This document shows positions 11,486 through 12,988 of a DNA stretch of 64,000 bases, one piece after another. The position numbers and the translations under genes are program-made. The first letter of the stretch is position 1; each line of letters begins with the position of its first letter. The notes below the pieces were generated by a model. That model searched no databases and was not told the DNA's origin. It worked only from the letters and a program-made list of their open reading frames with translations. The DNA comes from Candidatus Iainarchaeum sp. GTDB taxonomy: Archaea > Iainarchaeota > Iainarchaeia > Iainarchaeales > UBA10219. Location of the stretch: NCBI GenBank assembly GCA_018304425.1, contig JAGVWE010000004.1:96001-160000 (forward strand). Reading direction: 5' to 3'.

Positions 11486-11558
11486 CAGCGGTCACGCCCC
11501 CCTGGGAAGCGCGTACGTGCCCTGTTTCGCCCTGCGGGGGCTCAACAGGGCGGTAGTA
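11486..11558 (-). repeat. Intercistronic structured element, copy A (before uL2)
   Basis: 34 nt (11486-11519) identical to 12916-12949; hairpin 11519-11551 covaries with 12949-12981. Confidence 0.85.
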
Positions 11559-11593
11559 ATTCCCGCCTTCCGGTCGATTTGTTCCATAAACAT
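11492..11593 (-). CDS. Putative 33-aa bridging ORF MFMEQIDRKAGITTALLSPRRAKQGTYALPRGA
   Basis: ATG overlaps uL23 stop (TAATG); TGA lies inside the SD-like GGGGGCGTGA 6 nt before the uL2 ATG. Confidence 0.5.
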   Translation of the reverse strand: MFMEQIDRKAGITTALLSPRRAKQGTYALPRGA

Positions 11594-12084
11594 TACAATA
11601 CACCCAGTTTCGTCGCCAATTCATCCGCCTTAAACGCCTTGTTGATTTTCACGAACGCCTTCTTCCGGGCCTTCATGTCCCGGCAAACGTTCACGCGGTC
11701 AACCTTGACATTGTACATGGTTTCAACCGCCTTCCGCACATCCGCCTTCGTGGCCTTCCGGTTCACGACGAACACGATCTTGTTCTCGCCGTCAATCATG
11801 TTCACGGCCTTCTCGGAAACCAGGGGATACTCCAGCACCTCATACACCTTCAAGGCACCGGTCTGCTCCAGTTGCCGCTCGTCGAACTTGACCGCGCTCT
11901 CCTTGCCCATTGCCTTTCCGGCATCCTTTTTTCCGGCGTGCGCCCCTTCCTTGGCAGCGTGGGCCTGCTGCGCGTGCTTGGGGTGCACCTTGCCCGCCAT
12001 GCGTTCCCGGGATGCGGTAACCTTGCGGTTGGCCTTGGAGGGCTTCCTGCCCATTGACTTTCCCTTGGGGTTCGGTCGTTCCAT
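11593..12084 (-). CDS. rpl23: 50S ribosomal protein uL23 with long basic N-terminal extension
   Basis: YPLVSEKA, N..VF.V...ATK..V..AVE, KKAFV, A..LATKLG. Confidence 0.95.
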   Translation of the reverse strand: MERPNPKGKSMGRKPSKANRKVTASRERMAGKVHPKHAQQAHAAKEGAHAGKKDAGKAMGKESAVKFDERQLEQTGALKVYEVLEYPLVSEKAVNMIDGENKIVFVVNRKATKADVRKAVETMYNVKVDRVNVCRDMKARKKAFVKINKAFKADELATKLGVL

Positions 12085-12085
12085 G

Positions 12086-12916
12086 TCAGTTCACCAGGTA
12101 CTTGGCCAATGCATTCAAGGCCCCTTCCGTCCACAACGTCAACCGGCCCGGCAGGGTTCCAGGCGCCAGCAATTCCGCGTTGAGGTTCCGCACCTCAACG
12201 ACATCCACGCCCTCGAGGTTCCTCGCCGCCTTGTAAACCTTGGCCGGCTTTTCCGTGACAATCAACAAGCTCTTGGCCCGCTTGTACTTCCTTCCCCGCG
12301 TCTTCCCGCGGCCCGGGCGCACCTTTTTGCGGGCCTTGGCCTTTTCAACGTCGCCATACACGTTCAAGGCAGTCAACACGGCCGCCACTTCCCTGGCCTT
12401 CACGAGCTCCTCGAACCGGGCTTCCACGACCAGGGGAAGGCGCTTGGCCTCGAACCGGTGTCCCCGGGCCCTCACCAACGCCACATCCGCGGTCGCGGCA
12501 ATCGCGGCCGCCACGGCCTTCCTCCGCTCCTTGTCATTGATTCTTTCCACGATGACGCGGTCCTTGTTCAACCGGTGCACCCTGGGACCGCCCACGGCGT
12601 GCGGCACTCCCGCCACCCTTCCCTGCAACAAATACCTTCTGTTCCTGAGCCTGGGCAGCCTCGCGTGCTCCACGTTAATCGTGCGGTACATGGCCGGCTT
12701 TTGCCTGGAGCCAATGTATTGCGCGGTCATGTCCCTTCCCGCCCTCGTGCTCGGGCCCTTGGGCTGGATTCTCCCGGTTTGCACGGCGATGACCGCCCGC
12801 TTGATCAAGCCCAGGTCCACTTCGGACTCGAACACCCGGGGCAACCCGATTTCGCGGAGTTTCTTGCCCTCCAAGGAAAGCACTTCCGCCTTCGTTTCAG
12901 CTTTCGCATCCACCAC
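12086..12916 (-). CDS. rpl4: 50S ribosomal protein uL4
   Basis: VP.AVGG...H, KVR.G.GK.RGR.Y, LLAPG...GRLT.W; GTG start inferred at 12916 (12913 or 12925 possible). Confidence 0.96.
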   Translation of the reverse strand: MVDAKAETKAEVLSLEGKKLREIGLPRVFESEVDLGLIKRAVIAVQTGRIQPKGPSTRAGRDMTAQYIGSRQKPAMYRTINVEHARLPRLRNRRYLLQGRVAGVPHAVGGPRVHRLNKDRVIVERINDKERRKAVAAAIAATADVALVRARGHRFEAKRLPLVVEARFEELVKAREVAAVLTALNVYGDVEKAKARKKVRPGRGKTRGRKYKRAKSLLIVTEKPAKVYKAARNLEGVDVVEVRNLNAELLAPGTLPGRLTLWTEGALNALAKYLVN

Positions 12917-12988
12917 AGCGGTCACGCCCCCCTGGGAAGCGCGTACGTGTCCCATCTCGCCCCGAAGGGGCTCGATGGGACGGTAGTA
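12916..12988 (-). repeat. Intercistronic structured element, copy B (before uL4)
   Basis: mRNA GUCCCAUC-GA-GCCC-CUUCG-GGGC-GA-GAUGGGAC followed by the block identical to copy A. Confidence 0.85.

Follow-up and report, generated by a model that had tools for sequence, protein, structure and literature searches.

The spacers in front of the ribosomal protein genes uL2 and uL4 in the S10 operon of this Candidatus Iainarchaeum genome hold two copies (A and B) of a structured element that is present about 33 times in the 1.48 Mb genome, as counted with two covariance models (R1 and R2), and that recurs in part of its archaeal order. We favour, with a probability of roughly 0.6, the reading that A and B are copies of a dispersed, non-autonomous, REP/MITE-like structured insertion element of archaea, which the operon would have accommodated by coupling to upstream open reading frames (uORFs). 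The window is the whole stretch of DNA that was analysed (64,000 nucleotides of one contig); all features given below with window coordinates are on its minus strand, which is the mRNA strand of A and B.

Two copies of a structured element in the S10 operon

The host genes around A and B (10763..14194; assigned from Pfam and ORFs) are uL3 (13031-14194), uL4 (12086 to about 12916/12925), uL23 (11593-12084) and uL2 (10763-11485, with the ATG at 11483-11485). Copy B (12914..12991) is in the uL3/uL4 spacer and copy A (11484..11561) in the uL23/uL2 spacer; R1 scores them with 68.9 and 65 bits, and R2, a covariance model for which only other genomes supplied sequences, with 29.5 bits (E 3e-8) and 27.0 bits (E 2.3e-7), respectively. 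Both spacers indeed have the arrangement described in the first-pass annotation: UACUACC, an 8-bp stem, GA opposite GA, an apical hairpin and a block that is identical between the copies. On the mRNA strand, copy A reads TACTACC-GCCCTGTT-GA-GCCC-CCGCA-GGGC-GA-AACAGGGC and copy B reads TACTACC-GTCCCATC-GA-GCCCC-TTC-GGGGC-GA-GATGGGAC, and the pattern of this hairpin motif has two exact matches in the window (11527-11558 and 12957-12988), with none expected from 100 shuffles. The hairpin itself (HP1) is at 11519..11551 in copy A (8-bp stem GCCCUGUU/AACAGGGC, GA/GA, apical GCCC-CCGCA-GGGC) and at 12949..12981 in copy B (GUCCCAUC/GAUGGGAC, GA/GA, GCCCC-UUC-GGGGC). The outer stems of A and B differ at four positions (2, 5, 6 and 8), each of them compensated on the opposite arm, while GA/GA is unchanged, exactly as had been noted. 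These compensatory pairs need not have evolved in place, since stem variants recur in other copies: the stem of copy A is identical to that of the copy at G000:C3:313643.

The 3' blocks of A (11486..11518) and B (12916..12948) are identical over 33 nt by pattern search (two matches in the window, none expected) and over 34 nt by BLAST. The repeat unit common to both copies reaches to 11574 at A and 13004 at B, and over an 89-nt repeat (D5) copy A is 81% identical to copy B. The frame of the block relative to the uL2 ATG differs from its frame relative to the uL4 GTG, and it contains a TGA in the uL2 frame; the block is therefore non-coding for both uL2 and uL4. The earlier suggestion that the block can fold over a Shine-Dalgarno-like run agrees with a second hairpin that we found in the shared block of A (CGCGCUUCC/GGGGGCGUG, with three G-U pairs), which spans the G-run. 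Folding on the mRNA strand, also proposed there, is favoured too: the sense strands of A and B reach -47.7 and -48.5 kcal/mol (z -2.5 and -2.9) and the antisense strands only -40.7 and -41.4 kcal/mol (z -1.3 and -1.9). HP1 is the sole long inverted repeat spanning A or B; the remainder are short overlapping palindromes inside or beside HP1.

The element folds into a hairpin and a pseudoknot

Comparison of the copies shows an element of about 60-100 nt that consists of one hairpin, HP1, and an H-type pseudoknot, with covariation in all three helices. It has four parts: a 5' tag, which is CTACC or ATATTACC/TATTTAT depending on the subtype; HP1; a short linker beginning with ACGT; and a second hairpin (HP2) with a loop that pairs to the linker. 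HP1 has 8 bp, the GA/GA and the apical extension are optional, and the loops of the short form are 3-4 nt long. GA is opposite GA in 21/22 aligned copies and is absent from most copies of the relative G040. Stems begin with G-C, followed by C-G or U-A, and the tail is GGTAG, GGTAAT or ATAAAT; TATTTAT-type copies have a CGTC tag and CTACC-type copies have CGTG.

HP1 is 97.7% paired and has double changes at six of its eight pairs; double changes are also present at 5/6 pairs of HP2 and at 3/4 pairs of the pseudoknot helix (38-41/53-56). In 28 copies from other genomes, pairing is 98.7% for HP1, 92.9% for HP2 and 88.7% for the pseudoknot, a level reached by none of 500 shuffles, and slid controls for the pseudoknot are at most 44.5% paired. 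In addition, the linker pairs better with the HP2 loop of its own copy than with shuffled loops (0/5000 permutations); this permutation test and the alignment test replaced an earlier register-free test on all candidate hairpins (mean 4.18 vs 3.80) that was too noisy. The two helices of the pseudoknot thus follow each other in 1-2-1'-2' order and both covary. HP1 stems are nearly all Watson-Crick, and a wobble test of HP1 mismatches in 51 unique stems (10 G-U vs 14 A-C) gave no sense-strand signal.

Copies are dispersed through the genome and part of the order

R1 has 29 matches in this genome, 28 of them at E<=6.2e-4, and R2 contributes 5 more; on the 64-kb window, R2 matches A, B and two further copies, C and D, and nothing else. 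Copies are present in 13 of 40 sampled relatives, equivalent to 14 of 41 genomes of the order when this genome is included, and 27 of the 41 have no match. A class-level sample has matches in 8/141 genomes (E<=1e-5). G040 has 63 copies, more than any other relative, some of them in arrays and at contig ends. The pattern scan of viral contigs for the element had no match, and a search for related loci returned a single distant locus that was uninformative.

The first-pass annotation had recognised no known archaeal element of this form, and this holds: the window has no match to Rfam 15 at gathering score, and at 19 loci around other copies (searched at E<=1) no family reaches the gathering score on the element. 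The rows returned for these loci are tRNAs, one CRISPR repeat and sub-gathering rows of mascRNA-menRNA and Plastid-ycf2 that overlap with tRNA rows. Another row below its gathering score, SOX2OT_exon3 (17.6 bits vs a gathering score of 70, E 0.42; L011 142-312, minus), overlaps with the copy at L011 255-305, which we take as chance. The element is not described in the literature that we found; a high density of MITEs is reported for one Woesearchaea genome and further DPANN genomes in the accessible text of PMC11602168, and its supplementary tables might list related repeats.

Target duplications and comparison with relatives indicate insertion

Two lines of evidence, flanking target duplications and presence or absence between relatives, identify the copies as insertions. 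Both are found at the junction of the RNA polymerase genes rpoB'' and rpoB'. Copy C, a long form (34847..34915; HP1 at 34873-34905; R1 58.8 bits, R2 E 0.018), is in the rpoB''/rpoB' spacer, and copy D, of the TATTTAT type (34750..34822; R1 50.7 bits, R2 32.4 bits, E 2.9e-9), is directly 5' of rpoB'. Together they are flanked by a 15-nt target duplication, a pattern that is present twice in the window with none expected: the upstream target copy GTGAAATTGAAATGA (34926..34940) is the 3' end of rpoB'' with its stop, and the downstream target copy GTGAAGCTTAAATGA (34728..34742) holds the ATG of rpoB'. Relatives have a compact junction with only one copy of this target sequence, and the sequence at their single junction matches the downstream target copy; the gap between the two genes is 5-36 nt in 8/11 relatives vs 194 nt in this genome. 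A 15-nt duplication is also present at the rpoB junction of G016. The idea that the element had split rpoB was rejected: rpoB' is a separate frame of ~600 aa in 41/41 genomes searched.

Four further sites of this genome have target duplications (12, 21, 31 and 62 nt); in G040, duplications flank the elements at uL3/uL4 (22 nt) and uL4/uL23 (35 nt), and G019 has several of 14-35 nt. Overall, the lengths are 12, 15, 21, 22, 31, 32, 35 and 62 nt, with no duplication detected at many copies; in this genome, duplications are above the shuffle range at only 8/23 copies tested, covering five sites. A role of the element as splitter of a T2SSF gene was likewise dropped: the duplicated 12-mer itself carries the stop/start overlap, and the two T2SSF ORFs therefore probably predate the insertion.

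In most of 29 relatives, the S10 junctions measure -55 to +43 nt (mostly -17 to +22; some starts are approximate) vs 114 and 107 nt here, and most relatives have no element at these junctions. Which S10 junctions are occupied varies by genome: uL3/uL4 and uL4/uL23 in G040, uL23/uL2 in G011. The uL23/uL2 junction is occupied both here and in G011, and the spacer of G015, read by eye, is element-like with two hairpins; the three genomes are from three different families, and this occupancy could reflect selection at the junction. Among close strains, no locus without the element was observed: the metagenome contigs, from four DNA runs, are short pieces that end at the repeats, and none bridges an empty site.

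Copies A and B are traversed by upstream open reading frames

uORF A (11492..11593; 33 codons and stop) has an ATG that overlaps the uL23 stop (TAATG), the place at which relatives have the ATG of uL2, and traverses the whole element to a TGA at 11492-11494, in the shared block and 6 nt before the uL2 ATG. uORF B (12922..13020; 32 codons and stop) passes through the element in the same frame; its ATG follows GGTTGATTTTT, a sequence similar to the region in which uL4 translation natively starts in relatives. The stop of uORF B (TGA, 12922-12924) overlaps the uL4 GTG, if this is the GTG at 12923-12925, or precedes it by 5 nt; further in-frame GTGs are at 12914-12916 and 12911-12913. Stop-free uORFs easily arise by chance in GC-rich sequence.

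From these data, we propose that insertion has carried the element through this genome and into part of its archaeal order; copies would land at the borders of genes and tRNAs, and 12-62 nt of the target are often duplicated, which preserves both the stop upstream and the start region downstream. A and B would have inserted just behind the ancestral start codons of uL2 and uL4, and these starts would now open uORFs of about 32-34 codons, which traverse the element and terminate in the shared block. Since the uORFs end beside the uL2 and uL4 starts, termination-reinitiation probably maintains translation of both genes, and the hairpins would be unwound by the translating ribosome.

Genomic contexts, orientation and a possible role as RNA

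Twelve of the 33 copies adjoin or are closely followed by tRNA genes, and at several tRNAs 0-2 nt separate the end of HP2 from the mature 5' end. Other neighbours (Pfam; genes outside the window were called with a codon-usage-based caller) are RNA polymerase subunits, a class I aminoacyl-tRNA synthetase, T2SSF genes, FtsZ and a PD-(D/E)XK nuclease, and pilus genes are among the contexts too. In a 455-aa E2 acyltransferase ORF, one of the 33 copies (G000:C3:164049-164099) forms part of the Ala/Pro linker and is translated in the frame of the gene. The first-pass annotation had set its regulatory interpretation against a REP/MITE-like repeat with genome-wide copies in random orientation and unrelated contexts: the genome-wide copies and the unrelated contexts are what we find, but the orientation is not random. 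Nearly all surviving copies have the orientation of transcription (17/20 of those with co-directional neighbours are sense); some copies are antisense or placed against tRNA 3' ends. A TATA-like hexamer is present 45-53 nt upstream in 8/28 copies (background rate 0.0012 per nt), and copies with this spacing likely start about 20-25 nt after the transcript start.

The sense bias, the TATA-like spacing, the abutment to tRNA ends and the conserved pseudoknot exceed the needs of a purely selfish DNA repeat and fit a role at the RNA level. The alternative that survives best, although we consider it rather unlikely, is a portable 5'-leader or spacer RNA module that is kept for its fold wherever it is placed, with insertion as delivery only; such a module could block 5'-to-3' decay or mark a processing site and in this way set the stability of segments such as uL4, uL2, rpoB' and pre-tRNAs. 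It would also explain why the sense strand of A and B folds better, with an HP2 that requires G-U pairs, and why uL23/uL2 is occupied in this genome, in G011 and perhaps in G015, but is difficult to reconcile with the many relatives that lack the element at the same junctions or altogether, with the copy that is translated within an ORF, with the copies that are antisense or at tRNA 3' ends and with HP1 mismatches that show no excess of wobble pairs. Only tentatively, we also consider an undescribed class of archaeal mobile element in which the selected unit would be the transcribed RNA of hairpin and pseudoknot, inserting at boundaries with long and variable duplications as a 'polite' portable module. 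If so, the long variable duplications would resemble nick-primed or RNA-primed insertion more than cut-and-paste transposition.

Mobilising enzymes and relation to known repeats

The element could not be linked to any transposase, and no candidate mobilising enzyme common to carriers was found. TnpB (PF07282) is present only in this genome and a reverse transcriptase (PF00078) only in G019; tyrosine recombinases are present in all three genomes tested. This genome and G040, the two richest in copies, each encode one Y1 transposase, and in G040 a copy of the element is ~60 nt beyond the right-end hairpin of the Y1 IS. This would fit with a REP-like repeat that acts as DNA, folding in the single-stranded state and mobilised by a Y1 tyrosine transposase of the IS200/IS605 or RAYT type, as would the almost purely Watson-Crick HP1 stems with their lack of wobble excess and the head-to-head element dimers of G040. 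Also compatible with this reading are the GACG that follows HP1 in the TATTTAT type, which is a CGTC tag on the opposite strand, and a stem/loop format like that of CGTC-tagged REPs, as far as the accessible text of PMC3733652 describes them. However, we regard this reading as improbable: the Y1 genes of both genomes are flanked by different hairpins of their own (CCCCACC-TTTAGG-GTGGGG type) and not by the element, a Y1 gene was not found in four further carriers, G016 (99% complete, 4 copies), G011, G019 and G005, and REPs have nothing that corresponds to HP2 or the pseudoknot. Moreover, IS200/IS605 elements to our knowledge make no target duplication, whereas the element often has one.

Among known repeats, the element was compared with the CGTC-tagged palindromic repeats of bacteria, which include RPE-4 and RPE-6 of Rickettsia (Di Nocera et al. 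2013, PMC3733652). According to the accessible text of that study, in which only bacterial phyla are named as hosts, those repeats are likewise short, dispersed and palindromic, with stems of 8-9 bp, short loops and a 4-nt tag next to the stem, which in the element is CGTC only in the TATTTAT-type copies. Both have sub-families that differ by complementary stem changes, form head-to-head dimers, have some intragenic copies, are mostly between unidirectional or convergent genes and have no known dedicated transposase. The element differs from these bacterial repeats (PMC3733652, same text) in its archaeal host and in a stem without A-T at positions 1-2 and without CCA tail; it also has a second hairpin, a covarying pseudoknot, an optional GA/GA extension and frequent duplications of variable length. 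Unlike GTAG-tagged REPs with their RAYTs, it has no GTAG tag 5' of the palindrome and does not flank the Y1 genes of this genome and G040; CTACC is 5' of HP1 on the sense strand, and GGTAG is thus 3' of the hairpin on the other strand.

Some MITEs are harmless within operons or genes (PMC10969869, a review, accessible part); examples are the palindromic elements of Rickettsia (RPE) and Chunjie, from Geobacter. Like these, the element is small, multicopy and non-autonomous, has copy-number bursts between genomes, is tolerated in operons and has an in-frame linker copy; intragenic in-frame read-through as in RPE is found in 1/33 copies. Unlike MITEs, it has no terminal inverted repeats (A and B examined), its duplications are 12-62 nt instead of short and fixed, and no parent IS was found; from IS200/IS605-derived elements, it differs by ends unlike the IS hairpins and by the presence of target duplications. 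Double-hairpin elements are also present in the mitochondrial genomes of Allomyces, and we know of no pseudoknot or target duplication in mitochondrial double-hairpin elements. Mitochondrial double-hairpin or repetitive hairpin-forming elements resemble the element described here as mobile repeats with two hairpins that enter spacers, and at times genes, where the genome is small and compact (PMC2800124, accessible text); host and sequence are unrelated. Of the known structured RNAs compared by eye on the basis of consensus features (K-turn, bulge-helix-bulge, C/D-box, H/ACA, hammerhead, HDV-like and pistol), none fits, as for example the 3-nt bulge, the CUGA core or an ACA at fixed distance is absent.

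The element is not confined to the S10 operon

The first-pass annotation had proposed a new cis-regulatory or processing element of the S10 operon. What stands of this is a real, covarying fold on the mRNA strand without Rfam match; what is not supported is that the element was made for this operon. The S10 leader of E. coli is bound by L4, and Rfam holds candidates for archaeal ribosomal-protein leaders; like such leaders, A and B are structured RNAs directly before the start codons of ribosomal protein genes and can mask an initiation region, here by sequestering the G-rich Shine-Dalgarno-like run in the 34-nt block, and they have a tandem G-A motif in addition. Nevertheless, an S10-specific autoregulatory site bound by uL4, uL2, uL23 or L7Ae, which would set stoichiometry, is very improbable, because the same element, with insertion marks, is found genome-wide in unrelated contexts, before tRNAs, before many unrelated genes and within an ORF, is not conserved at the S10 junctions, matches no ribosomal leader of Rfam and is not a K-turn. 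K-turns are defined by a 3-nt bulge between a canonical helix and the G-A pairs; at the level of sequence, the element shares the tandem G-A opposite G-A with K-turn/L7Ae sites, but has it as a symmetric 2x2 loop between Watson-Crick helices, with no bulge.

Implications

The reading of a covarying hairpin in front of two ribosomal protein genes as a regulator specific to their operon is attractive, but the hairpin gives no evidence for it if copies of it are dispersed as a repeat. With the insertion element that we favour, a format related to REP-like tagged palindromes, for which the literature that we found is on bacteria, is now seen in small-genome archaea; new in the archaeal version are the covarying pseudoknot and the long target duplications. 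The element strongly prefers tRNA ends and gene junctions and is accommodated in the most conserved operons of the cell. If the reading as a mobile RNA were true, the module would come with its own structured 5' end, stop and context for re-initiation, and the S10 and RNA polymerase operons and tRNA genes would tolerate or even use it. The copies offer a natural experiment on how compact genomes take up insertions, by uORF coupling, by duplicated stop and start regions and by in-frame insertion into a linker, on why assemblies of such genomes break and on whether a small structured RNA may serve as a portable leader.

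Copies A and B in the S10 operon

The S10 operon genes of this stretch lie on the minus strand in the order uL3 (13031-14194), uL4 (12086 to about 12916), uL23 (11593-12084), uL2 (10763-11485) and uS19. The spacers uL23|uL2 (copy A) and uL3|uL4 (copy B) have a common layout on the mRNA strand: TACTACC, the first arm of an 8-bp stem, GA, a short hairpin at the apex, GA, the second stem arm and a block that reaches the start codon. This pattern has exactly two matches in the window and none expected, the block 3' of the 8-bp-stem hairpin (HP1) is identical in both copies over 33-34 nt, and the outer stems show four differences, each of them compensated; the repeated hairpin with identical block and compensated stems that the first-pass annotation had described in front of uL2 and uL4 is thus borne out. 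Both stem variants recur, that of A at G000:C3:313643 in the studied genome (G000) and that of B in other copies, so the differences may come from exchange between family members. A second hairpin (HP2) is formed by CGCGCUUCC/GGGGGCGUG in both copies, has three G-U pairs and spans the G-run; the pseudoknot found in other copies is not evident in A and B. The plus strand opposite the ribosomal protein genes has an open frame of 1296 codons (9896-13786), a shadow ORF of the kind usual in GC-rich DNA and no gene.

Copy number and distribution

A third copy was found by repeat finding and a fourth by reading the spacer; both (C and D) lie between rpoB'' and rpoB'. BLAST, a structural scan and nhmmer identified about 22 copies on five contigs of the entire 1.48-Mb assembly. 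Covariance model R1, built from 22 copies, gave 29 matches in this genome (28 at E<=6.2e-4); R2, built solely from copies of other genomes, gave 23, five of them new, bringing the total to about 33, and within the window it matched D, B, A and C only. R1 matched at E<=0.01 in 14 of 41 genomes of the order, the studied one included, with the highest count in G040 (63, of which some lie in arrays and at the ends of contigs) and 14 in G019; under stricter filters, 8/141 genomes of a class-level sample matched at E<=1e-5. Occurrence is patchy and comes in bursts. On the element, none of the Rfam families reached its gathering score.

Apart from the element, the window has a unit of about 120 nt that is repeated three times in tandem (42638-42988), inside the span of a 632-aa ORF on the minus strand (41443-43341); over 108 aligned nt, the other two units share 84% and 73% identity with the first.

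Fold and covariation

In the alignment of the 22 copies of the studied genome, 97.7% of HP1 cells are paired and six of the eight pairs changed on both sides; none of 500 shuffles equalled the observed pairing or covariation. A helix of 4 bp that possibly encloses HP1 is weaker (60% paired). The module of GA/GA and apical stem is optional; in G040, HP1 of most copies is just the 8-bp stem and a 3-4-nt loop. HP1 is followed by ACGT, a linker and HP2, the linker being complementary to the loop of HP2 (H-type pseudoknot). Across 28 copies from the relatives G040, G016, G011, G037 and G027, pairing is 98.7% for HP1, 88.7% for the pseudoknot and 92.9% for HP2; slid controls of the pseudoknot reach 44.5% or less. 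A register-free permutation test of linker versus HP2 loop is in agreement (3.02 vs 2.56, 0/5000). As kinship of the sequences inflates such tests, we place the weight on the count of different pair types: pseudoknot pairs 39-55, 40-54 and 41-53 each occur as 3-4 different Watson-Crick types.

Probable insertion marks

Copies C and D are together flanked by GTGAAATTGAAATGA at the rpoB'' end and GTGAAGCTTAAATGA, which contains the rpoB' ATG (two occurrences of the flanking pattern in the window, none expected). Relatives have one such sequence at this junction, and their gap is 5-36 nt in 8/11 cases vs 194 nt in the studied genome; at this site G016 bears a separate element with a 15-nt duplication of its own, and none is present in G040, which belongs to the same family as G016. 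The element was ruled out as cause of the rpoB split, which is found in 41/41 genomes. Further duplications flanking copies of the studied genome measure 12, 21 (tRNA-Leu 3' end), 31 and 62 nt, and the duplication score exceeds the shuffle range for eight of 23 tested copies, at five sites. G019 has 14-35-nt duplications around copies, one inside an ORF. In the G040 S10 operon, elements lie at uL3|uL4 and uL4|uL23, and 3' of them the upstream gene's last 22 or 35 nt are repeated, stop included. Mismatches within duplicate pairs are nearly all synonymous for the upstream gene. The upstream duplicate probably stays coding, with synonymous drift only, while the downstream duplicate would be fixed as the next gene's initiation region; the rpoB downstream duplicate, which equals the relatives' sequence, agrees with this.

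Most S10 junctions of 29 relatives measure -55 to +43 nt, chiefly -17 to +22, some starts being approximate. Longer gaps occur in G040, G015, G011, G013 and G024 and at the loci L078, L083 and L085; the latter three look compact on reading and their gaps seem to be start-call artefacts. In G011, R2 confirmed an element in the uL23|uL2 spacer (44 bits), and in G013 it confirmed one behind rpoB'. The uL3|uL4 spacer of G015 (L087) is occupied by another kind of insert, about 100 nt long and containing the internal repeat TTCAGGGGCGTGCGAGG, around which about 21 nt of the uL3 3' end are duplicated: this junction was struck by another element type too.

Relation to known mobile elements

The element has no terminal inverted repeats. 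IS200-type Y1 transposases are present once each in the studied genome (L001, G000:C1:1-1600) and G040 (L162, G040:C117:1450-2080), none was found in four further carrier genomes, and neither TnpB nor reverse transcriptase is common to the carriers. The IS end hairpins are unlike the element; the right-end hairpins of both IS are near-identical (CCCCACC-TTTAGG-GTGGGG, then GAGGATGTCA). In the studied genome, the IS has broken up a tyrosine-integrase gene that lies next to tRNA-Thr, and the contig stops right at the IS end.

Among described formats, the bacterial CGTC-tagged REPs (PMC3733652) come closest, a group that likewise has no known transposase and takes in in-frame Rickettsia elements. 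Compared with that group, the present element lacks the tail and stem-base features and has HP2, the pseudoknot and the duplications in addition. Our favoured reading, with a probability of roughly 0.6, is that an archaeal order carries a new structured insertion element of REP/MITE-like kind.

Genomic contexts

Neighbours were assigned with our own codon-usage gene caller, ARAGORN and Rfam tRNAs. The nearest downstream feature is on the element's strand for 26/33 copies, and between co-directional neighbours 17 copies are sense vs 3 antisense. Twelve copies touch tRNA genes or lie shortly ahead of them (8 sense upstream, 3 facing the tRNA 3' end, 1 directly behind), and in several sense-upstream copies HP2 ends 0-2 nt ahead of the tRNA. 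A TATA-like hexamer 45-53 nt upstream in 8/28 copies (background 0.0012 per nt) suggests that the element often starts about 20-25 nt into the transcript. A live, though rather improbable, rival reading is that the fold of the RNA is of use in its own right, serving as a leader or processing module. Among 51 distinct stems, HP1 mismatches are 10 G-U vs 14 A-C, and with no G-U excess HP1 alone is no proof of RNA-level selection. The other neighbours have unrelated functions and include RNA polymerase subunits, a class I aminoacyl-tRNA synthetase, two T2SSF genes, FtsZ, a nuclease and Fic. The first-pass annotation rightly saw a real, folded element, but its reading of the A/B structure as a regulator specific to the S10 operon is not supported, given the dispersed copies in this genome and in G040 and their unrelated neighbours.

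One long copy lies in frame inside a 455-aa E2 acyltransferase and is read through; the host site is the Ala/Pro linker that joins the lipoyl domain to the E3-binding domain.

Several arrangements at tRNA genes were also observed. Two head-to-head element pairs of G040 (L091 268-347, L095 265-343) with a common A/T-rich centre fill exactly the spacer between two same-strand tRNA genes, so that the spacer transcript would be one long hairpin. At L028, L030, L034 and L042 (G015, G013, G018) and at G000:C3:228874-228925, tRNA genes have a solitary HP1-like GA/GA hairpin immediately 3' of them, after which come an A/T-rich terminator-like hairpin and a repeat of the tRNA's last 13-21 nt; the arrangement recurs in several families. 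An Rfam CRISPR-DR7 match (L004 566-602, G000:C1:113065-113101; 43.6 bits vs gathering score 37) may be the start of a CRISPR array; it lies about 40 nt 3' of a tRNA-Cys gene with an element copy ahead of it.

Upstream open reading frames through copies A and B

Probable old start sites lie 5' of both copies: in B, the spacer GGTTGATTTTT-ATG is similar to the relatives' native uL4 initiation region, and in A, an ATG that shares bases with the uL23 stop (TAATG) stands where many relatives start uL2. These ATGs now open uORFs of 33 (A) and 32 codons (B), which cross the element in one common frame and stop at the TGA of the shared block, 6 nt ahead of the uL2 ATG in A and, in B, overlapping one in-frame uL4 GTG or 5 nt ahead of the next. 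For an inserted element, this arrangement suggests that ribosomes from the old start sites would read through it and then re-initiate at uL2 and uL4, which would account both for the 3' block staying identical in A and B and for the tolerance of insertions in these essential genes.
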